Assembly (NCBI GenBank): GCA_023267555.1
Contig: JAHFMZ010000003.1
Location: 1-48,786, forward strand
DNA from: a bacterium
GTDB lineage: Bacteria; Patescibacteriota; Minisyncoccia; Phycocordibacterales; UBA5272
Direction: 5' to 3'
DNA: 48,786 nucleotides
A program made the position numbers and the translations under genes. Below, in pieces: positions 1 through 36,656 of this stretch. Each line of letters opens with the position of its first letter. Positions within the stretch are counted from its first letter, which is position 1. The notes beneath the pieces were generated by a model. It did not search any database and was not told the origin of the DNA. It saw nothing but the letters and a program-made list of their open reading frames with translations.

Positions 1-2
1 TC

Positions 3-93
3 TTCAAATCCCAACGAATGACACGCAGGTGTCATTCTTCGATTGCGCAAAATTAAAATACCCAAGGCTTTCGCTTTGGGTATTTTAATTTTG
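3..93 (-). mobile_element. 3'-type target-antisense mini-element after tRNA-Asp (cut by window edge)
   Basis: Minus strand: trailer hairpin, then TGCGCAATCGA-[AGAATGACA CCTGCG TGTCATTCGT]-TGGGATTTGAA, a split antisense copy of the tRNA 3' end; same layout as the elements at 27.0, 30.4, 35.0 and 36.5 kb. Confidence 0.65.
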
Positions 94-167
94 CGCAGTC
101 GATGGGATTTGAACCCACGACCCCCGCCGTGACAGGGCGGTGCTCTAACCAGCTGAGCTACGACTGC
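94..167 (-). tRNA. tRNA-Asp(GTC)
   Basis: Cloverleaf GCAGTCG/CGACTGC, anticodon loop CTGTCAC, T-loop TTCAAAT. Confidence 0.96.
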
Positions 168-27023: not shown

Positions 27024-27127
27024 CATATAGAAAAAATACCAACTGCTTGGCTTACGGGGAGTTGAATAGGGGTCGCGAAACTAATTATGACGAACGCAGT
27101 GAGGAATTAGTTTTGTGACCGAGTCTC
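27024..27127 (+). mobile_element. 3'-type target-antisense mini-element, partly decayed
   Basis: CCA-ACTGCT-TGG hairpin, GGGAGTTGAA (antisense to T-arm), TAGGGGTCGCGAAACT...AGTTTTGTGACC, then GAGTC. Confidence 0.65.
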
Positions 27128-27202
27128 TCTTACTTCGTATCTTACTTTATTATCTACACCCAGTATTTCTCTCGTGATATACTTACCCCATAAACATACT
27201 TT

Positions 27203-28282
27203 ATGGGACAAACAGAGAATTCAATTTTTTGGATAGAATTAGAGAAAATCGTACCAAACCCATTTCAACCGAGACGGGAATTTGATCAGGATAGATTGAA
27301 AGAACTTTCAGATAGTATCCGTCAATACGGTGTGCTTCAGCCACTTGTGGTATCTCGCCAAGAAACTGTATTGGAAGATGGTGGTGTAAAAGTGGAATAT
27401 GAACTTATCGCTGGTGAGCGTCGTTTACGTGCTTCTAAGCTCGCAGGATTGATTCAGGTGCCTGTTGTTGTGCGTACAGGTGATGATAGTCGTGCCAAGC
27501 TAGAACTTGCTATTATAGAGAATTTACAACGTGAAGATTTGAATTCTGTCGAACGCGCTCAATCTTTCCAGAGACTTGCTGAAGAGTTTAAACTTTCTTG
27601 GGCAGAAGTTGGGCGTAAAATGGGGAAAAGTCGTGAATATGTTTCAAATACTGTGCGTATTTTGATGCTTCCACAAGATATACTTGATGCTATTTCAAAA
27701 AGGCAAATTACTGAAGGTCATACTCGTCCACTTTTAATGTTAATAGATAGACCAGCAGAGCAAATGACTCTTTTTAAGGAAATGATGGTACGCAAAATGA
27801 CTGTGCGTGAAGCTGAACAAATCGCTCGTCGTATCGCTTTTGAAAAAGTTCGCAAGAAGGATTTGTTTATGACACCAGAAGTTGTAGATATGGAAGAAAA
27901 GCTCGCCGAGACCCTCGGGACTAGAGTGCAAATAGAACCACGTGAACGTGGAGGTCGTATTTGGATTGATTATTTTTCACACGAAGAATTACTTGCACTT
28001 TCTGTTGCTATTCGTAAAGCAGGGGAAGAAAAAACACATAAAGGAATGTTTGATACTCTCAAAGAAGAAGATATGGAGACGCTACAAGCAGTACCAGATA
28101 CCGAGAGATATATAAAGCCAGTTACAGAATTTACTCATCTAGGACAAGAGGAAACGTCACCAGAAGAAAAGTTGGAAATTTATGAACCTACAGATGTTGC
28201 GGTTGATGATCGTTCAATAGAAGAAGTAAAAGCGGAAGAGCAAAGTGAAGACTTATATAACGTAAAAAATTTTAGTATTTAG
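27203..28282 (+). CDS. parB: ParB/Spo0J family partition protein
   Basis: NPFQPRR.F, GVLQPL, IAGERR.RA, IENLQREDL, HTH; acidic C-tail. Confidence 0.92.
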   Translation: MGQTENSIFWIELEKIVPNPFQPRREFDQDRLKELSDSIRQYGVLQPLVVSRQETVLEDGGVKVEYELIAGERRLRASKLAGLIQVPVVVRTGDDSRAKLELAIIENLQREDLNSVERAQSFQRLAEEFKLSWAEVGRKMGKSREYVSNTVRILMLPQDILDAISKRQITEGHTRPLLMLIDRPAEQMTLFKEMMVRKMTVREAEQIARRIAFEKVRKKDLFMTPEVVDMEEKLAETLGTRVQIEPRERGGRIWIDYFSHEELLALSVAIRKAGEEKTHKGMFDTLKEEDMETLQAVPDTERYIKPVTEFTHLGQEETSPEEKLEIYEPTDVAVDDRSIEEVKAEEQSEDLYNVKNFSI

Positions 28283-28319
28283 TTTTTTTAAATTTTTAAA
28301 CTAAATGATGAGAATATAA

Positions 28320-29804
28320 TTATCTTGTTAAGAATTTATCAAGCGGACCTCCGTGTTCTTTAATATAAACTCTTACGTGTCTTTTTGCCAAAGCTGTGCG
28401 CGACATATCTATCCATTTTCGTTTTGGTGAGGCACTTTCTTTTACTTCTATTTCCACTACATCTTGATTTTTTAATGTAGTATCTAGTGGTACCAATTTT
28501 CCATTTACTTTTGCACCAGCGGTATGATCACCAATATCTGAATGGACAGCATAAGCGAAATCAATAGTCGTTGAACCTTCCGGTAAATCTATAACATCTC
28601 CTTTTGGTGTAAAAACGAATACTCGCGTTTCAAAAAAATCTGTCTTTAAATTATTTATAAATTCTTGGTGCTTGTCTACATTTTTTTGCCATTCCAAAAG
28701 CTCTCTAGTCCAACCAGTCTTTTTGATTATCTCTTCTTTACTTGCTTTCTTACCAAGCTCTTTATATGAAAGGTGATTGGCAATACCATATTCGGCCTCA
28801 CGATGCATTTCTTTTGTTCTAATTTGTATTTCCAAAGTATTTCCTTCTCCAGAAAAAATAGTCGTATGAAGTGAACGATATCCGTTTGGTTTTGGTAAAG
28901 CAATATAATCTTTGAATCTACTAGGAACAGGACGGTACAGTCCGTGTATTACACCAAGGGCTTGATAGCAATCGGGAACAGCAGGAACAATAATACGCAA
29001 AGCTACGACATCGTGAACTTTAGAAATATCCATTTTGTAACGTTTCAATTTTTGCCACAAAGAATATAAATGTTTAACACGATAGTCTATGCGCTCGATT
29101 TCTACATCAAATATAGCAAGTTCTTCTTTTAATTTTGATACCACAATTTCTAATTGTTCATCAGAAATTGGGCGCATACTTTTGAAAAATTCTACTGTTT
29201 TTATATATTCTTCTGGGTAAACATATGGAAAAGCTGCATCTTCAAGTTGGGCTTTTAATCTTCCCATTCCCAATCTGTCTGCGAGGCGTGCGTGAATTTC
29301 CAAAGTTTCAAGAGCGATACGTTTTTGTTTTTCGGGAGAAACATATTTAAGAGTTTGAATATTATGTAGTCTGTCGCAAAGTTTTATGACGACCACACGA
29401 ATATCATCTGCCATCGCGACGAAAAATTTACGTAGTGATTCCACGTGACGCTCGGTACCAGAATATTTTAATTTACCGAGTTTTGTGACTCCTTCCACAA
29501 GGGTAACTATTTTGTCATTAAATTCGCTTCGTAATTCTTCAGCAGTTACTGGAGTGTCTTCCAAGATGTCGTGCATAAGTCCAGCCGCAATTGTTTCAGC
29601 GTCCATTTTGAGTGTGGCCAAGTTTATACCAGTGGCAAAAAGGTGAGTGTAATATGGTTCACCAGATTTACGAAGTTGACCGGTATGCGCTTTTTCTGAA
29701 AACTTACAGGCGCGAAGAATTAATTCTTTGTCAGATTCTTTAATATCAGGAAGTAGCGCAAAAATACGCGAAGGGTCTGTGTCAGAAAAAGTCTTCAAGT
29801 CCAT
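28320..29804 (-). CDS. rel: (p)ppGpp synthetase/hydrolase (HD-SYNTH-TGS)
   Basis: RKSGEPY, HDILED, DRLHN, KPNGYRSLHT, EIQIRT, TGS domain; no ACT domain. Confidence 0.93.
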   Translation of the reverse strand: MDLKTFSDTDPSRIFALLPDIKESDKELILRACKFSEKAHTGQLRKSGEPYYTHLFATGINLATLKMDAETIAAGLMHDILEDTPVTAEELRSEFNDKIVTLVEGVTKLGKLKYSGTERHVESLRKFFVAMADDIRVVVIKLCDRLHNIQTLKYVSPEKQKRIALETLEIHARLADRLGMGRLKAQLEDAAFPYVYPEEYIKTVEFFKSMRPISDEQLEIVVSKLKEELAIFDVEIERIDYRVKHLYSLWQKLKRYKMDISKVHDVVALRIIVPAVPDCYQALGVIHGLYRPVPSRFKDYIALPKPNGYRSLHTTIFSGEGNTLEIQIRTKEMHREAEYGIANHLSYKELGKKASKEEIIKKTGWTRELLEWQKNVDKHQEFINNLKTDFFETRVFVFTPKGDVIDLPEGSTTIDFAYAVHSDIGDHTAGAKVNGKLVPLDTTLKNQDVVEIEVKESASPKRKWIDMSRTALAKRHVRVYIKEHGGPLDKFLTR

Positions 29805-29888
29805 AGGTTTAACAATATCAAAAAATTTGGAAAAGGCAAAGAAAAACCCCCAACGTTTTACTGTTGGGTGGTTGTTGCCAAAGAGTCT

Positions 29889-30227
29889 TTATTCTTTTGG
29901 TAAAATGGAAGAGAGTCGGTCTTCATATCCTAGCTTGTGCGCCAAATAAGTTCGCCTGAAGGTTTTCTTTGAAGTATCGTTCACTTTGGTTAAATGTTCC
30001 TTAATTTCTCTAAAGATGCTTTTTTTGTTATACGTATGATCGCAACTATCAAAATCCACAGGTAATTCTTGAGCAATAAATGCAAGACGCCCCATTGCAT
30101 ATACTGAGGTCATATTTTTCTTCATCATTTCTCTTGCTATTTGTGCCAATCTATTCCAGTAAGATCCTTGAGTTTCGTGTCCTATATGTCTAAGGGCGGA
30201 GTATTTACTTATTATGATTTTAGACAT
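29889..30227 (-). CDS. Orphan hypothetical protein
   Basis: TTGACT promoter, AAAGGA SD, terminator near 29843-29873. Confidence 0.6.
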   Translation of the reverse strand: MSKIIISKYSALRHIGHETQGSYWNRLAQIAREMMKKNMTSVYAMGRLAFIAQELPVDFDSCDHTYNKKSIFREIKEHLTKVNDTSKKTFRRTYLAHKLGYEDRLSSILPKE

Positions 30228-30292
30228 TTCTGTATTCCTTTTCTGTGAATGAGCCTACGTAAATACTAACTTTATTTATATAAAAGTCAAAC

Positions 30293-30329
30293 ATACAAAA
30301 GAGCGACCCGAAGGGTCGCTCTTTTGTAT
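30293..30329. terminator. Palindromic terminator directly after the displaced topA end
   Basis: ATACAAAAGAGCGACCC-GAA-GGGTCGCTCTTTTGTAT. Confidence 0.8.
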
Positions 30330-30407
30330 TTATTTTTTAACTTCCAATTTATGTGGGTTGTGGTTTGGACAGAGTTTGTCGCTACATCTCTCGGGTATGG
30401 TTTTGGT
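30330..30407 (-). pseudogene. Displaced alternative 3' end of topA (25 codons plus stop)
   Basis: Translates TKTIPERCSDKLCPNHNPHKLEVKK* versus the live end TKTIPERCSDKGCPMHNPHKLNKEEK*. Confidence 0.85.
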
Positions 30408-30623
30408 CACAGATAATTTATCGCCGTCGCTCGAAATTTCCGCGACCCCGGCTCACTTGTTTTTCTTGCTAGAAAAACATAGTTCCGCCAGACAAAGACC
30501 ACCGCAGGCAACGCAGGATGCCTGCTTACCCGAGATATTAATTATTTCTCTTCTTTGTTTAGTTTATGAGGGTTATGCATCGGGCAACCTTTATCTGAAC
30601 ATCTCTCGGGTATGGTCTTTGTC
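30405..30623 (-). mobile_element. 3'-type target-antisense mini-element in the topA 3' end
   Basis: ATCTCGGGTA-[AGCAGGCAT CCTGCG TTGCCTGCGG]-TGGTCTTTGTC antisense to topA 30601-30623; GGGGTCGCGG...CTGTGACC hairpin abuts the displaced end. Confidence 0.75.
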
Positions 30624-32755
30624 CCTTCCATCATCAACTCTCCACATTCTGTCCCGTCATCTTTTTTATAAGTACAACGATTACCAGTTGGGCGAGTTTT
30701 GATTATATGTTTACAATCTGGATAATTTGAACAAGCGTAAAATATTCCAAAGCGTCCTTTGCGCTCCTCCATATATCCGTCTTTACATTTATTACAAGAG
30801 ACACCAGTTGAATTTGCTTTACGCATCTCTTCATCCTGTTCAATATATTTACATTTTGGATAATTCGAACAGGCGATAAATTTACCATATTTTCCTTCAC
30901 GTTCCATTAATTCTCCTTTTTCGCATTTCGGACATTTTTTGCCAAGTAATTTTGGACCTTCCATAACATCACCGTCCATTTTTCTTGCACCCATACATTC
31001 TGGATAACGAATACAAGAATAAAATTTTCCATTTTTTGCAAGCTTGATGACCATCTTGGCGTTACAAAGTGGGCACTTCATTCCTTCTGGAGCATCACCC
31101 ATACTTGTAGCTTTCTCTAAATTTTCTTTTGATTTTACATCTTTAAGAAATGGTCCGTAAAAATCTTTCAATGTTTTTAAATAGGTAGCCTTACCTTCAG
31201 CGATTAAGTCTAGCTTGTCTTCCATATCTGCTGTGAATGTATCACTTATGTATGACGCAAAATGATCTTCCAAAAATGAAATCACAACTTCACCAGTATC
31301 TGTTGGGTGAAGTGCTTTGTTTATTTTTTCAACATAACCGCGCGCTTCGATGGTCGTCATAATAGACGCATAGGTTGATGGACGGCCAATACCTCTTTTC
31401 TCAAGCTCTTTGATTAAACCAGCTTCACTATATCTGTTTGGTGGCTCAGTTTGTTTTTCAATTGATTGTAATGTTTTTAAATTAAGCGTGTCATTTGGTT
31501 TTAGCTCTGGCAAAATTACATCATCACTTTTTGCATCTTCTGATGCCAAAAGCCATCCTGGAGAAAGAAGTATAGAACCTGTCACAGAAAAATCAGGAAT
31601 ACTTTTTGATGGAATATTTGCAGTAACTTTGCTGCGTTTTAATTTTGCATCTTTCATTTGACTGGATACGGCGCGTTCCCAGATGAGTGAATAAAGACGT
31701 TTTTCATCGTCATTTGTACCACCACTTCTTTGCGTAGCGTGAGTTGGACGTATTGCTTCGTGAGCCTCCTGAGCATTTTTTGATTTGGTTTTATATTGGC
31801 GAATTTCTAGATTTTCTTTGCCAAAGTTTTTTTCAATTACAGAAGCAATTTCTGCAACAGCAGTAGCTGACAATGTTGTACTATCTGTACGCATATAAGT
31901 GATGAGACCTTTTTCATATAATTTTTGGGCGATACCCATAGTGCGAGACGGAGAATATCCAAGGCGTGAACTTGCCGCTTGTTGCAAAGTAGAAGTTGTG
32001 AATGGAGCTTTTGGTGAACGAGAAACTTCTGTGCTTTCTATTGAGACGACTTCCCAATTTGAATTTTTACCTTCACGCACAATACGTTCGGCTTCCGCTT
32101 TGTCATTTGGTTGTTTTTCACATTCAAGAATGAGAGTGTAAGTTTTACTTTCTTTCATTCGGCCGACAGTTGAAAATTCGCCAGCAATTACATAATAGGT
32201 GACAGGAATAAATGCACGTATTTCGCGTTCGCGTTCCATAATGATGCGAAGTGCAGGGGATTGCACGCGGCCAGCAGAAAGTCCGTAGCGAACTTTTTTC
32301 CAAATAATTCCTGACAAATCATATCCTACAAGACGATCAAGTACGCGACGAGCCTCCTGAGCTTCTTTTAAATTAATATCAATTTCACGTGGATGTTGTA
32401 TGGCTTCCAAAATAGCTTCTTTGGTGATTTCGTGGAAAGCTACTCGTTTCGCAGTTTTAAGTCCACAAGCTTCTTGTATATGCCAAGCTATCGCTTCTCC
32501 TTCACGGTCGGGGTCGGTTGCGAGTAATATTTCATTTGATTTTTTGGCAAGAGATTTTATTTCAGAAATAACTTTTTCTTTACCAGCACTTACTTCGTAA
32601 TGCGGAATAAAACCACCTTCTATGTCGACAGCTTTTTTATTGCTCTTTGGCAAATCACGAATATGACCAACAGACGCACGCACTTCATATGCGCCGTCTA
32701 AATATTTTGCAATAGTTTTTGCCTTGGAAGGACTTTCTACAATTAATAGTTTCAT
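30542..32755 (-). CDS. topA: DNA topoisomerase I
   Basis: LIVESPSKAKTI, DPDREGE, SAGRVQS, ITYMRTD, C-terminal Zn ribbons. Confidence 0.98.
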   Translation of the reverse strand: MKLLIVESPSKAKTIAKYLDGAYEVRASVGHIRDLPKSNKKAVDIEGGFIPHYEVSAGKEKVISEIKSLAKKSNEILLATDPDREGEAIAWHIQEACGLKTAKRVAFHEITKEAILEAIQHPREIDINLKEAQEARRVLDRLVGYDLSGIIWKKVRYGLSAGRVQSPALRIIMEREREIRAFIPVTYYVIAGEFSTVGRMKESKTYTLILECEKQPNDKAEAERIVREGKNSNWEVVSIESTEVSRSPKAPFTTSTLQQAASSRLGYSPSRTMGIAQKLYEKGLITYMRTDSTTLSATAVAEIASVIEKNFGKENLEIRQYKTKSKNAQEAHEAIRPTHATQRSGGTNDDEKRLYSLIWERAVSSQMKDAKLKRSKVTANIPSKSIPDFSVTGSILLSPGWLLASEDAKSDDVILPELKPNDTLNLKTLQSIEKQTEPPNRYSEAGLIKELEKRGIGRPSTYASIMTTIEARGYVEKINKALHPTDTGEVVISFLEDHFASYISDTFTADMEDKLDLIAEGKATYLKTLKDFYGPFLKDVKSKENLEKATSMGDAPEGMKCPLCNAKMVIKLAKNGKFYSCIRYPECMGARKMDGDVMEGPKLLGKKCPKCEKGELMEREGKYGKFIACSNYPKCKYIEQDEEMRKANSTGVSCNKCKDGYMEERKGRFGIFYACSNYPDCKHIIKTRPTGNRCTYKKDDGTECGELMMEGTKTIPERCSDKGCPMHNPHKLNKEEK

Positions 32756-32773
32756 TGGGAGTTAGGATGTACT

Positions 32774-33670
32774 TTACACTATCTTTGTTACTTCGCCAAA
32801 TGTTTCTTGTATTACACCTTTCATTTCGAGTGAAGAAAGTGTAATTAGAAAATCTGTTGGAGAGAGTTTACTGTTAATTAATAATAAATCCTTTTCTATT
32901 GGTTCGGATAATAAATTTAATATAAGTTGTTCGTTGGGAGAATAATCGCGAATAATTTCTTTGCTCTCTCTTTTTGAAAGATGAAGCAACGCAAATAAGT
33001 CATCTTCATTTGCTATTGTGTATGCTCCATCACGTATGAGTATATTTGTTCCAATAGATGTTGGCGAAAATATATCTCCAGGAACAGCGCCAATATCACG
33101 ACCAAGTTCAAGAGCTTGTCTTGCGGTAATTAATGTACCCGACTTTTCTTCGGCCTCTACAACTAATAAAGCATCTGATAAGGCTGCCATAATACGATTA
33201 CGTGAAGGGAATGTCCATTGTGCAGCAGGTGTTTCTGGCGGAAGTTCAGATAATAATGTTCCACCGGAATTGACTATATCTTCGGCTAATCCGAGATGAG
33301 TTCTGGGATAAATTACTTTGGTATCAAGTCCACTGCCGGGAATTGCAATAGTAATTATTTTATTTTTTAATGCAGTATTGTGAGCCAGACTGTCTATACC
33401 ATAAGCAAGACCAGAAAGAATTATAATATTTTCATTTGCAAGAGAATTTATTAATTTCTCTACACAATTTTTTCCGTAATTTGTATTTTTACGTGAACCA
33501 ATTACAGTTAATATGCGTGGAGTGGCACGACCGTATTCATCAAGAGTTATTTCTGGTAGTGTGCCAGCGACATATAACATCTCGGGGACATCGTGTAGTT
33601 CTAATAATCGTGCTAAGAGTGGATGTTCAGAAAATTTTTCGCGAGGGATTATAGAAAGCGGAAAGGGCAT
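32774..33670 (-). CDS. dprA: DNA-processing protein DprA
   Basis: IGSR, SGLAYGIDS.AH, FP.RNRI, VEA.EKSGTLITA; next to topA. Confidence 0.94.
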   Translation of the reverse strand: MPFPLSIIPREKFSEHPLLARLLELHDVPEMLYVAGTLPEITLDEYGRATPRILTVIGSRKNTNYGKNCVEKLINSLANENIIILSGLAYGIDSLAHNTALKNKIITIAIPGSGLDTKVIYPRTHLGLAEDIVNSGGTLLSELPPETPAAQWTFPSRNRIMAALSDALLVVEAEEKSGTLITARQALELGRDIGAVPGDIFSPTSIGTNILIRDGAYTIANEDDLFALLHLSKRESKEIIRDYSPNEQLILNLLSEPIEKDLLLINSKLSPTDFLITLSSLEMKGVIQETFGEVTKIV

Positions 33671-33774
33671 ATAAATAGTTTACATTTTTCATTTTGTAGT
33701 GACAACGGATACAAACAAAAAAGACGCCCACGAATTTTTATTTTCGTAGCCGTCTTTAAATCTGGCTACATTGT

Positions 33775-34860
33775 TTAAAAGCAAATGAATCCGCCAGTAA
33801 CACCATCAGGTATGTCTTCCAAATCTTTTGCTGTTGCAACTACAGCATAACCTTCAAAATCAATTTTATCCCAAAACGTTTGCGCGTATTTCCAAGCTTT
33901 TGTTTCTGGATATCCAAATTGGACGGGCTTGTTGGCAAACATATTTGCAGTGAAGTTGTAAGTTTTACTGAGAATTTTTCCTAACAAGGAAGCATATTGC
34001 TCCTTAGCAACATACTCGGCATTCCTTGTCATATTGATGACAAGCTTTGGTGGTTTTTTTGATTCGAATGCAAGTCTTTTCCCAGCGGGAATAATCAAGC
34101 AAACAGGTGAATCCACCAAAACAAAAGGTTTTTTACCGTTGATTGTTTTTTGATAATGGAGAAAACGGAAACCATCGAGGTCGGTATATTTTTTAACCAC
34201 ATCTTCCTCAAACATCTCCTTATTCGGAAGTGGTGGTTGTATGGTACCGTCATCGAGTTGTGCATAGACTATGTGTGAAGTTTTCTTTTGTTGGTTGAAA
34301 GGTAGATTTATCCAAGAATTCGCAATGAATCCGTAGATGACTGCGAGAAGAATAATCTTGAACCCGATTCTTTGATAAACAAGCTCAGGATGACTTCTGT
34401 CTATAGAGAAAAACCAATTACCTAGATTTGCAAAGATGCGATATATTGTCATAGACAAAAGTGACGCATCTGTTTTTATTTTGTATTCAGGAAGTCTTTG
34501 ATCCCGGAAATGCGTGTGCTCAATCTTAATGTTTGGATTGAAGAGTTGAAGCTCCTCGTAAGTTTCTTTTTTCAGATTCCACAACAAATAAATACCAATG
34601 TTATGTAATGCTGGAAAAAGTGAGGGGACTAAACAAAACCCGTCGCTCCAAAAATAATTCGTGGACTTTTCGAAAAACAAAAGTTCTGCTGTTGTTCCGG
34701 CTTCGATCTTTCGAAGAAAGTGAAGAAATATTCCAAGAAAGAAAAAACAGGTGAGTTGAAATGAATAAGGTAAATTTTTTATCCATTTTTGATAATAATA
34801 CACATACACCGACATTATGAGCAGGGAAATAATTGCCCCAGCTAGTTTACCGATTCTCAT
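33775..34860 (-). CDS. Orphan membrane protein
   Basis: GGAGG SD before ATG 34860; about 3 TM segments and a soluble C-domain. Confidence 0.72.
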   Translation of the reverse strand: MRIGKLAGAIISLLIMSVYVYYYQKWIKNLPYSFQLTCFFFLGIFLHFLRKIEAGTTAELLFFEKSTNYFWSDGFCLVPSLFPALHNIGIYLLWNLKKETYEELQLFNPNIKIEHTHFRDQRLPEYKIKTDASLLSMTIYRIFANLGNWFFSIDRSHPELVYQRIGFKIILLAVIYGFIANSWINLPFNQQKKTSHIVYAQLDDGTIQPPLPNKEMFEEDVVKKYTDLDGFRFLHYQKTINGKKPFVLVDSPVCLIIPAGKRLAFESKKPPKLVINMTRNAEYVAKEQYASLLGKILSKTYNFTANMFANKPVQFGYPETKAWKYAQTFWDKIDFEGYAVVATAKDLEDIPDGVTGGFICF

Positions 34861-34944
34861 TATGGAATCCTCCAAAAAGTTAAAGAGCCGATATTTGATA
34901 TCAAAACTGGTTTTATCCTGTCATACGGAAAAAGAAAATGCAAA

Positions 34945-35093
34945 TTTGTGCCCAGGGCGGGACTCGGTCACAAAATCAGCTCCTTCGTCGCAGATGATTT
35001 TCCGACCCGTATTCGAGTCCCGATAAAAGCCAAGCAGTTGGCTTTCTCCCTGTCACAAAATGAAAAAGCTGGCAAAAGCCAGTTTTCATTTTG
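34945..35093 (-). mobile_element. 3'-type target-antisense mini-element after tRNA-Leu(TAA)
   Basis: 22-bp direct repeat 34945-34966 / 35090-35111; split antisense TGTGACAGGG-[AGAAAGCCA ACTGCT TGGCTTTTAT]-CGGGACTCGAA; GGGTCGGAAAATCA...TGATTTTGTGACC. Confidence 0.8.
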
Positions 35094-35176
35094 TGCCCAG
35101 GGCGGGACTCGAACCCGCACGCTGTAACCAGCCAAGGATTTTAAGTCCTTTATGTCTACCATTCCATCACCCGGGC
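35094..35176 (-). tRNA. tRNA-Leu(TAA)
   Basis: GCCCGGG/CCTGGGC, CTTAAAA loop, long variable arm. Confidence 0.95.
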
Positions 35177-35259
35177 AGGTGTTTAGCTATTCTAACAAAT
35201 TTTCACTACTAAAGAAATTACTCAATACTTCTTTTAAAAAAGTTTGTTAGATATTGTTG

Positions 35260-35332
35260 TGCCCCCAGTAGGGATCGAACCTACGACCTGCGGATTAAGA
35301 GTCCGATGCTCTACCAGCTGAGCTATAGGGGC
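35260..35332 (-). tRNA. tRNA-Lys(CTT)
   Basis: GCCCCTA/TGGGGGC, CTCTTAA loop. Confidence 0.94.
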
Positions 35333-35414
35333 TTATAGTGAAATACTATAACACGACTCATAGAAATTCTCTAGAGCATAAAGCATAAATATGTTAGAAT
35401 GAGAAAGTTTAAAA

Positions 35415-35531
35415 GACAAGATGCAGTGGTGAGTGGTCCAAGAGCATAGCGAAATATATGAATAGATCTGCGGTTAAACCGCAGCGTCAAAATATAAATC
35501 GAAGGTAAACCATTATAATTGTTTACAGAAT
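35415..35531 (+). repeat. Upstream duplication of the tRNA-Cys 5' end with anti-tRNA hairpin
   Basis: GACAAGATGCAGTGG at 35415 and 35532; AAACCGCAGCGT antisense to tRNA ACGCTGCGGTTT. Confidence 0.78.
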
Positions 35532-35536
35532 GACAA

Positions 35537-35610
35537 GATGCAGTGGCGAAGTGGCCTAACGCTGCGGTTTGCAAAACCGCCATTCGCGGGTTCGACTCCC
35601 GCCTGCATCT
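35537..35610 (+). tRNA. tRNA-Cys(GCA)
   Basis: GATGCAG/CTGCATC, U73, TTGCAAA loop. Confidence 0.95.
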
Positions 35611-36293
35611 CACTTATTAAAAAATTCTTTTGGCATTTCGCTTTTAAAAGTGTTTTCCTCTCTATCAAGATCAAAACTTAAACTCTCGGCGTGAAGCATA
35701 ATATGTGGTGAATCAATTTTACTTCCATATATTTTATCCCCAACTATCGGATGACCAATTGATGACATATGTGCACGCAATTGATGAGTGCGCCCAGTTT
35801 TCGGTAAAAGTTTTACGAGGGTTGTATTTGCCCTACGTTCTATTACTTCTACTTCTGTTATTGCCTCACGTAATTCTCCTCGCAAATTTACTGGATTGGT
35901 TGATTGCTTATAATCTTTTTTATTACGACCAAGAGGTGAATCAATGATAAATTTATTTTGTTCAATAATTCCTTCAACAACCGCTACGTATGTTTTTTTG
36001 ATTATATGATTTCTAAATTGTGATTTTAATTCATCAAAAACTTCTTGGGTTTTCGCAATAACTAATATTCCCGAAGTGTCTCGGTCTAATTTATGAACAA
36101 TACCACCCAATTCTATCGTTCTTTTATCTTGTAGTGTCACACTATTATCTATGTAAAACATTTTAGAATAATTTTCGTGCAAAAAATCCACAAGGGTATA
36201 TTCCGTGGAATAATCAAACGGATGAATTACAATACCTGAAGGTTTGTCTATAACTAGAAAGTTTTCATTTTCAAAAATTATCTTGATATTCAT
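35610..36293 (-). CDS. RluA/RluD family pseudouridine synthase
   Basis: DKPSG, VHKLDRDTSG, TGRTHQLR.H, HPIVGD..YG. Confidence 0.93.
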   Translation of the reverse strand: MNIKIIFENENFLVIDKPSGIVIHPFDYSTEYTLVDFLHENYSKMFYIDNSVTLQDKRTIELGGIVHKLDRDTSGILVIAKTQEVFDELKSQFRNHIIKKTYVAVVEGIIEQNKFIIDSPLGRNKKDYKQSTNPVNLRGELREAITEVEVIERRANTTLVKLLPKTGRTHQLRAHMSSIGHPIVGDKIYGSKIDSPHIMLHAESLSFDLDREENTFKSEMPKEFFNK

Positions 36294-36340
36294 ATTCGCA
36301 ATCTAACATATTTTTATGTATAATACACAGACAATTATAA

Positions 36341-36422
36341 GCCCGGGTGGCGAAATTGGTAGACGCACTTGCCTTAGGAGCAAGCGCCGCAAGGCATGAA
36401 GGTTCAAGTCCTTTCCCGGGCA
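36341..36422 (+). tRNA. tRNA-Leu(TAG)
   Basis: GCCCGGG/CCCGGGC, CTTAGGA loop, long variable arm. Confidence 0.95.
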
Positions 36423-36575
36423 CAACATAAAAAATGAGACCGCGTAAGCTGTCCATTTTTTAGTTGTGCCCGAGAAGCAAGTGATCTGCACCACTTGCGT
36501 AAGGACTTGAATAGGGGTCGCGAAGTCTTCTATTTTTGATTACAAAAATAGACTTTGTGACCAAGTCCTTTCCCG
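36423..36575 (+). mobile_element. 3'-type target-antisense mini-element after tRNA-Leu(TAG)
   Basis: GTTGTGCCCGAGA-[AGCAAGTG ATCTGCAC CACTTGCGT]-AAGGACTTGAA, TAGGGGTCGCGAAGTC...GACTTTGTGACC, direct repeat AAGTCCTTTCCCG. Confidence 0.8.
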
Positions 36576-36656
36576 CATTAAAAACATATGCGAGGTGACC
36601 AAACCCTTTCTTATCCTTGCTTTCACCTCATCTTTGTGGTATTACGAAACTACGTA

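Follow-up and report, generated by a model that had tools for sequence, protein, structure and literature searches.

Modules behind tRNA genes and topA

The DNA stretch analyzed here (the window; 48,786 nucleotides, contig C19) belongs to the genome G000 of a member of the Patescibacteriota (513,749 bp in 24 contigs, about 36% G+C, estimated 93% complete). It carries genes for tRNA-Asp, tRNA-Leu-CAA, tRNA-Leu-TAA and tRNA-Leu-TAG as well as topA, each followed by a short module of one common layout (Table 1). An earlier note on this DNA had described five such loci, and all of them were recovered as first described. The tRNA genes were placed by ARAGORN and Rfam, and topA by the Pfam domains Topoisom_bac, Toprim and Zn_ribbon_Top1. 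In the following, G numbers denote genomes, L numbers loci, and R1 the covariance model of the module.

Read in the orientation of the host gene, the gene 3' end is followed by an A/T-flanked, terminator-like hairpin, which was called on both strands behind tRNA-Leu-TAA. Next comes a segment (half A) antisense to the 3' strand of the acceptor stem, the discriminator and a few bases of the trailer, and then a central stem of 9 bp, closed by a CTGC tetraloop and followed by GT. A second segment (half B) is antisense to the 3' strand of the T-stem and the entire T-loop including its TTC; it is followed by TA and by a terminal hairpin which opens with GGGGTCGCG or GGGTCGG and closes with (T)GTGACC. 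The displaced old end of the gene completes the arrangement, this second copy beginning directly after TTC.

Table 1. Features of the window and size of the related islands in other genomes
Feature	Position (window) or locus and length	Strand	Basis
tRNA-Asp	93-167	-	ARAGORN, Rfam
Module behind tRNA-Asp: terminator, half A, CTGC-loop stem (16-37), half B	1..92	-	R1 match 1-53
tRNA-Leu-CAA	26943-27024	+	ARAGORN, Rfam
Module behind tRNA-Leu-CAA	27025..27120	+	R1, 78.5 bits
Displaced original topA 3' end (...TIPERCSDKLCPNHNPHKLEVKK, stop)	30330..30404	-	
topA module	30405..30541	-	weak R1 match 30493-30541 (E 0.06); orthologous copies in G007, G015
Element-borne topA replacement 3' end, encoding ...KTIPERCSDKGCPMHNPHKLNKEEK, stop	30542..30620	-	topA open reading frame 30542-32755
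Displaced old end of tRNA-Leu-TAA, 21 nt identical to gene end	34945..34965	-	
Module behind tRNA-Leu-TAA	34966-35062	-	R1, 98.8 bits
Terminator behind tRNA-Leu-TAA	35063-35092	-	
tRNA-Leu-TAA	35093-35176	-	ARAGORN, Rfam
tRNA-Leu-TAG	36341-36423	+	ARAGORN, Rfam
Terminator-like hairpin and module (36461-36562) behind tRNA-Leu-TAG	36424..36562	+	R1, 90.3 bits
Displaced old end of tRNA-Leu-TAG, without GG	36563-77	+	by eye
Second, older right-end remnant GGTGACC (36594-36600) and decayed end (36601-12)	up to 36612	+	by eye
Island in tRNA-Asn	L072, 12.2 kb		
Island in tRNA-Ala	L073, about 5 kb		
Island in tRNA-Tyr	L070, 8 kb		
Island in tRNA-Ser	L074, 8.4 kb		
Island in tRNA-Glu	L075, 16 kb		
Island in tRNA-Leu-TAG	L121 (same stretch as L130), 4.2 kb		
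Island in tRNA-Leu-TAG	L133, 2.8 kb		

The overall layout of the earlier note thus stands, with some corrections: half A is degenerate in several copies of the family, and the flank behind the tRNA-Leu-CAA module is not a Leu-CAA end. The latter module lacks both the terminator and half A and consists of a short CTGC stem, half B and the GGGGTCGCG...GTGACC hairpin; the bases after it (27121-27137, GAGTCTCTC...) resemble tRNA-Val-TAC ends found elsewhere, and the copy looks chimeric. The Asp module ends at the window edge before the GTGACC hairpin, and its R1 match is partial at the 3' side. In the topA module, half A, a stem GCAGGCA/TGCCTGC with a CTGC-containing loop and half B are followed by an extra hairpin cassette and by the GGGGTCGCG...GTGACC hairpin. 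The cassette (...ATGTTTTTCTAGCAAGAAAAACA...) occurs at window positions 30449-30490 and at C16:1460-1510 and C24:3925-3965 of G000, and it is common to the topA, Lys-TTT, Val-GAC and Ile-TAT modules and the topA modules of other species; sub-hairpins appear to behave as exchangeable cassettes.

Size and distribution of the family

The earlier note had proposed a covariance-model search for further copies. R1, built from 17 copies, gave 26 matches in G000, located behind 22 different tRNA genes (of 40) and topA; one weak match which overlaps a tRNA is probably spurious. On reading the downstream sequences, the layout is seen behind most of all 40 tRNA genes, including variant copies at Gly-TCC and Arg-CCT which, like a tmRNA remnant, were recognized by eye only. 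Matches to R1 are present in all 24 other genomes sampled from the genus (1-22 copies each) and in 10 of the 16 genomes that represent other families of the order, while 150 other genomes sampled across the phylum yielded one weak match.

Stems of at least 6 bp with a CTGC loop lie within modules in 19 of 23 cases in G000. Four other tetraloops used as controls gave 5-9 such stems, the reverse-complement loop GCAG mirroring the CTGC count, and the clustering of CTGC stems in modules is not due to chance. Rfam searches of the window at gathering thresholds, and of 14 loci at E-value thresholds, returned tRNA and tmRNA matches only, in agreement with the earlier note, in which the scaffold was not recognized. 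A 16-mer scan of viral contigs yielded 17 stretches, which we attribute to chance because none of them matched R1.

Replacement of gene ends, empty sites and tandem insertions

Insertion at gene 3' ends with supply of a replacement end, as suggested in the earlier note, is supported. The topA gene of G000 ends with ...CSDKGCPMHNPHKLNKEEK and a stop codon, and a second end, ...CSDKLCPNHNPHKLEVKK and stop, lies past the module. New and old end share an identical stretch of about 20 nt and then differ mostly at synonymous sites. The module is present in G000, G007 and G015, while topA is uninterrupted in G041 and G045, where its ends resemble the displaced one; altogether, 10 of 30 other genomes of the genus show the topA insertion. 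Likewise, tRNA-Leu-TAG lacks any module in 4 of 11 loci. Judging from these comparisons, the target gene is restored by the element, a displaced fragment marks the far end of the latter, and related genomes comprise both occupied and empty sites. In G000, 7 of 18 copies have an old end identical to the new one; in the other copies it has decayed or been shortened. Of the 330 bases compared, 250 are alike. At L046-L048, one tRNA is followed by a series of two or three modules that belong to different subtypes, and in some of these the inverted copy is unsplit.

Two other readings were discarded. A target-site duplication is rejected because the new and old topA ends differ at synonymous sites, and a primer-binding site because the pairing of the halves extends past the mature tRNA end and topA is a target as well.

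Right ends have GTGAC[CG] in combination with a TT[CG]AA T-loop, and GTGAC[CA] in combination with TT[CA]AA (putative core bases in brackets). The earlier note had placed the junction right after the TTC of the T-loop; the exact base is ambiguous by one. The junctions fit a 2-nt core C[G/A] of the T-loop, within which the crossover presumably takes place.

At the tRNA-Leu-TAG loci (L045-L055, L022), CCA is encoded in three of four genes without a module and absent from six of seven genes with one, indicating that element-borne ends usually drop the encoded CCA.

Large serine recombinases in islands with the same right end

The earlier note had suggested that the modules are non-autonomous and depend on an enzyme encoded elsewhere, and that longer copies carrying an open reading frame (ORF) might be found. 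Such copies exist. R1 matches located far from tRNAs are the right ends of islands in tRNA genes, each being followed by the cognate old end. All seven islands (2.8-16 kb) contain a gene for a large serine recombinase, that of the Tyr island being a remnant, and no other class of recombinase was found in them. The large serine recombinase is the sole protein family common to the Asn, Ala, Tyr, Ser and Glu islands; Pfam assigned Resolvase, Recombinase and Zn_ribbon_recom domains to these proteins, except for the Tyr remnant, which retains the zinc ribbon only. The recombinases of the two Leu-TAG islands, detected by a Resolvase search and tblastn, are relatives of this family. An all-against-all comparison of the ORFs just upstream of 12 modules not adjacent to a tRNA revealed no shared protein; the recombinase emerged only when whole islands were compared. 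Island cargo comprises type I restriction-modification-like genes (named by eye), AbiEii and T5orf172.

The recombinase gene reaches into the tRNA 3' end in the Asn, Ala and both Leu-TAG islands (four of seven) and is internal in the Ser and Glu islands. Resolvase-domain genes occur in 32 of 40 other genomes of the genus, and in 14 of 30 serine recombinase loci of the genus the 3' end of the ORF overlaps the end of a convergent tRNA gene. Across Patescibacteria, a convergent tRNA gene is found at the gene end of 30 of 38 relatives of the Leu-TAG recombinase; metagenome-assembled genomes labelled Nomurabacteria, Parcubacteria, Paceibacteria and Saccharibacteria hold relatives of one element-linked protein. 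The tRNA concerned varies with the degree of recombinase identity: Leu-TAG at 53-100%, Val-TAC or Arg at 45-47%, and Pro at about 31-34%, with one Val-TAC at 72%. Since the neighbouring tRNA mostly follows the relatedness of the recombinases, recognition by the protein can explain the targeting.

Three island-bearing genomes encode one tyrosine recombinase each, which is located either on a different contig or at a distance of over 50 kb from the islands. G000, at 93% completeness, yielded no serine recombinase (Resolvase), no IS110-type DEDD recombinase (PF01548) and no Y1 HUH enzyme (PF01797), and it holds one tyrosine recombinase. Because a recombinase gene is absent from the window copies and from G000, we class these copies as non-autonomous derivatives; that all of them are non-coding and non-autonomous is supported by the data.

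Some features of the recombinase loci deserve mention in their own right. The ORFs of L077-L102 extend 10-62 nt into the convergent tRNA gene, some of them past the T-loop, so that the C-terminal tail of the protein would differ between the integrated and the excised state. Recombinases of 87% identity next to tRNA-Ala and tRNA-Val were considered as a test of programmability and dropped, as no displaced end or R1 module lies within reach. In this 87%-identical family (L116-L118), a shared trailer AGCAGTAGAATCC..hairpin..GGATTTTAC follows, which also follows tRNA-Ala in G000 (C8:1-46). In several islands (L060-L063, L058, L121, L137, L140) a "pseudo-end", GGTTCTAACTTCG... or AAAAAGTTCRAGTG..., precedes the terminator; after it comes an acceptor-like stretch that pairs with half A, and the pseudo-end is conserved between islands of different tRNAs. 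The Tyr island (G023 C8, L070) is bracketed by two copies of terminator plus module, one after the real tRNA end and the other after a pseudo-end, which differ at 1 of 106 bases.

Folding and covariation

RNAalifold supports both helices of the module, the central stem and the terminal hairpin. In an alignment of 49 copies (48 distinct, from many genomes) fitted to the model, 96.6% of the cells pair, as compared to 74% after shuffling and 33-46% with slid partners, and changes on both sides were seen in 22 of 24 pairs. The terminal hairpin has two positions near its foot that form G-U pairs in 40 and 23 copies, respectively, and alternate with A-U or G-C. As the G-U pairs would turn into C-A mismatches on the other strand, this pattern favours a fold of the gene-sense strand, be it RNA or single-stranded DNA. 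The covarying stems and the single-strand fold proposed in the earlier note on the basis of G-T wobbles thus were borne out, and helices of this kind, with strand-specific wobble pairs, suggest an element that is structured as a single strand. When the 3' end located past the junction is included, the module is predicted to fold into a branched, tRNA-like hairpin (energy z-scores of -10.2 and -8.9), in which half A pairs with the acceptor strand and half B with the T-arm strand, the terminal hairpin sitting on top.

A structure of this kind might act after integration, namely as an insulator or terminator, as a processing signal by virtue of its resemblance to tRNA, or as a regulator of the convergent recombinase gene. 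The bidirectional terminator within the module, the strong energy z-scores of the tRNA-like fold, and the recombinase ORFs that cross the left junction into the tRNA would all suit such a role. Termination, however, needs no complementarity to unpaired T-loop bases, and the halves are located after the terminator; we consider a function of this type quite improbable.

A strand-specific fold in which a hairpin has the junction at its foot, preceded on the 5' side by a pairing segment, would also be expected of a single-strand pathway served by another enzyme, for instance the host's sole tyrosine recombinase acting on the folded strand, as known from CTX phage and integron attC sites, or an unrecognized HUH enzyme. 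The genome does keep one tyrosine recombinase. However, the Y1 enzyme was not found in G000, no dif-like site was recognized (by eye only), and the islands carry serine rather than tyrosine recombinases. In our judgement, this pathway is very improbable and the most doubtful of the alternatives.

Inverted halves and their targets

In 19 tRNA-linked copies, the longest run complementary to the cognate tRNA end averages 8.8 nt for half A and 11.4 nt for half B, as compared to 5.5 and 7.2 nt for non-cognate tRNAs. For half A, the cognate tRNA ranks strictly first in 10 of 19 copies (2 ties), and for half B in 9 of 19 (7 ties). Half B follows the variable bases of the T-loop (ACTCGAA/TTCGAGT, ACTTGAA/TTCAAGT, AGTCGAA/TTCGACT). 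At topA, the halves track synonymous codon changes across three species, TACCCGAGA occurring with TCTCGGGTA in G000, TTCCCGAAA with TTTCGGGAA in G007, and TTCCAGAA with TTCTGGAA in G015; half B alternates between GGTCTTTGTC and CGTCTTTGTC. The halves of G007 match the new topA end and not the old one. The two halves are antisense to the same strand and together span a single contiguous stretch. A degenerate half A is found in several copies (Pro, Thr, L022, L121), and Leu-CAA has none; this variation weighs against a strict requirement for the half.

Among relatives with a displaced end within the fetched flank, five of six (L130, L133, L137, L140 and L158) show an inverted copy of the tRNA end, then hairpins, then the junction. 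The inverted copy of L137 is unsplit and matches at 18 of 18 nt. The distant islands L137, L140 and L158 have other hairpin sequences, and both the hairpins and the end sequences of L137 and L158 are unrelated to those of the window, suggesting that the architecture is conserved and not the sequence.

The earlier note had taken the antisense halves to choose the target. In an elaborated form of this idea, the folded gene-sense strand (RNA or single-stranded DNA) would serve as a base-pairing guide or proof-reader across the crossover, confining insertion to a gene whose end the element is able to replace; its partner would be the large serine recombinase or an unrecognized enzyme, and retargeting would need new halves and a new end. 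The match of the halves to the cognate gene in the 19 copies agrees with this idea, as do their adherence to variable T-loop bases, including GAA opposite the TTC left of the junction, and to synonymous changes of topA in three species, with the G007 halves fitting the new end over the old. Half B of the islands fits the tRNA even though the neighbouring pseudo-end fails to do so. The helices covary with G-U pairs on one strand, identical scaffolds bear different halves, and recombinases of about 70% identity are found at tRNA-Leu-TAG and tRNA-Val-TAC. A guide would further account for the extent of the halves across the crossover, for their complementarity to unpaired T-loop bases, and for the persistence of their match while old ends decay. 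On the other hand, a strong terminator lies directly before half A with no promoter-like site between them, and we know of no RNA or DNA guide for serine recombinases. The halves are absent from some islands (L145) and degenerate in Pro, L022 and L121; the two tRNAs targeted by the similar recombinases share the T-loop TTCAAGTC; and pairing in cis with the element's own end gives the same covariation. Target choice by the halves is not supported, given the L145-type islands without them and the dependence of the tRNA on recombinase relatedness, and we regard a guide function as unlikely. If true, this would be a natural integrase system open to re-programming, of which a single 0.5-Mb genome holds 20-odd copies with different programs.

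The inverted copy might, conversely, be a by-product without function that arises in the making of the element end, e.g., by fold-back copying at the terminator hairpin, and that is kept by concerted evolution of the palindrome. New end, terminator and unsplit inverted copy do form one long palindrome in L046 and L137, and some halves are decaying. However, distant lineages whose hairpins are unrelated retain the architecture, and the halves stay matched where the old ends have decayed or become shortened; we consider a by-product distinctly improbable.

Proposed mode of insertion

Taken together, the loci may be integrated copies of a patescibacterial family of site-specific integrative elements. 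The window copies would be derivatives of serine recombinase islands that lack recombinase and cargo; crossover would take place at a 2-nt core within the T-loop, with the element supplying a replacement end. We give this reading an even chance. Established by the data are the layout of the modules, their covariation, their presence in some genomes and absence from others, the replaced gene ends and the tie to recombinase islands. In tRNA and tmRNA genes the elements would recombine within the T-loop (core TT[C G/A]AA), and in topA at a comparable site close to the gene end. The gene stays intact because the element brings its own copy of the gene 3' end, the old end being shifted downstream. 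Full-size members (2.8-16 kb) encode a large serine recombinase, which probably catalyzes the insertion, while the window copies would be derivatives of about 100-220 bp which have kept both junctions, presumably arose from islands through loss of the interior, and have no self-mobility in G000. The supposed guide is an inverted copy of the replaced 3' end near the right end of the element, with one or more hairpins between this copy and the crossover. On the gene-sense strand, the inverted copy would pair with the 3' end across the junction to form the branched, tRNA-like hairpin, and the folded or extruded structure probably sets a mirror image of the right half of the target next to the crossover. 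We infer that, instead of being a free guide, the inverted copy belongs to the right attachment arm as a structured component. Sites of serine integrases are normally quasi-palindromic.

Several observations weigh against this proposal. Between the inverted copy and the crossover there are 50-150 bp, which exceeds the half-site of a serine integrase (about 25 bp). The island at L145 has no inverted copy and a plain right end, ...GAATTC next to GAATCC, which by analogy would be a short version of the quasi-palindromic arrangement. The G-U pairs conserved on one of the two strands indicate a fold formed by a single strand, and serine recombinases are not known to make use of such folding. The base of the terminal hairpin, moreover, shows no symmetry with the tRNA side. 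In six short copies at different tRNAs, the terminal hairpin is 100% identical while stems and halves differ, implying an exchange between loci that our proposal leaves unexplained; simple vertical decay does not predict shared identical hairpins, and how at least 22 short copies lost their interior so precisely stays unexplained as well. One recombinase family next to tRNAs (L077-L079) has no displaced end or module within reach. Finally, contig-level read data (Logan, in which contigs break at repeats) revealed no usable joints, circles or module transcripts, the RNA runs containing tRNA-like pieces only.

Comparison with known systems

The usual enzymes of islands in tRNA and tmRNA genes (Islander-type) are tyrosine integrases, according to the abstract of PMC4383910. 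Islander-type islands and prophages resemble the elements discussed here in their insertion inside the gene, the replacement 3' end, the displaced fragment at the far end and the sublocation in the T-loop. In contrast, the enzyme associated with the present family is a large serine recombinase, and most copies are gene-less, measure 100-220 bp and contain hairpins and an inverted copy of the target. Phage large serine integrases such as those of phiC31 and Bxb1 have Resolvase, Recombinase and zinc-ribbon domains in common with the island enzymes, and the junctions would fit a shared 2-nt core as in these phages. Unlike phiC31 and Bxb1, the present elements share long identity with the target in their right arms, have a tRNA T-loop as target, hold an inverted copy and hairpins next to the crossover, and commonly occur as small non-autonomous derivatives.

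Elements which are flanked by both junctions and lack a recombinase, and tandem arrays at one att site, are known as cis-mobilizable elements (CIMEs) and as products of tandem accretion, respectively. In comparison to CIMEs, the present elements are far smaller and far more numerous, occupying over half of the tRNA genes, and possess a conserved structured module. Tycheposons of Prochlorococcus target tRNA genes and form tandem arrays. They resemble the present family in having site-specific integrases in a streamlined genome. They mostly encode a tyrosine recombinase and in a minority a large serine recombinase, and in the text that describes them the word "hairpin" is absent and the sole "inverted repeat" is part of a reference title (10.1101/2020.12.28.424599).

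The earlier note had also been reminded of IS110 bridge RNAs and of IS200/IS605. With the bridge RNA or seekRNA, the modules share a bipartite pairing segment around a stem and a second structured module at the element end. The guide segments of IS110 bridge RNAs pair with opposite target strands. Here, by contrast, both halves are on one strand, a replacement gene end is supplied, G000 yielded no DEDD recombinase, and Rfam gave no match. IS200/IS605, CTX phage and integron attC have in common with the modules an end hairpin, a segment for pairing on the 5' side of the hairpin foot, and a fold confined to one strand; the modules differ from IS200/IS605 by a pairing of about 20 nt instead of 4, a displaced target copy, a serine recombinase, and the lack of a detectable Y1 enzyme in G000. 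Neither likeness was supported: the IS110 and IS200/IS605 enzymes were not found in G000, and both halves pair with the same strand, unlike those of a bridge RNA.

The literature searched, mainly at the level of abstracts, contained no description of such modules, and passages of 10.64898/2026.10.21.760802 held nothing relevant to them. Insertion into tRNA genes with a replacement end is textbook knowledge. Beyond the textbook are the gene-less derivatives at over half of the tRNA genes of a minimal genome, the large serine recombinase as the associated enzyme class, and the structured, covarying inverted copy of the own target kept beside the crossover in every copy. Serine integrases are already in use for large DNA insertion, and if the inverted copy does help to choose the site, it would represent a new way of programming such an enzyme. 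If it plays no part in site choice, the family still accounts for much of the intergenic DNA and of the variation in tRNA flanks in these genomes, and R1 is a marker for mapping islands in Patescibacteria.

Further observations

Many terminal-hairpin loops (e.g., at G000 C3:12639-12689, L058 and L057) contain T-loop-like bases, TTCGA(A/G)C or GACGAA, which are followed by AGTGAGG-like bases. On the minus strand of the window, partial 5' copies of tRNA-Asp and tRNA-Met were noticed by eye just upstream of the intact genes (170-330 and 420-590). Behind the partial tRNA-Met copy lies a segment that is antisense to the anticodon arm (GGCTTATGAG). Such partial 5' copies may represent a second kind of insertion, which replaces the 5' parts of tRNA genes.

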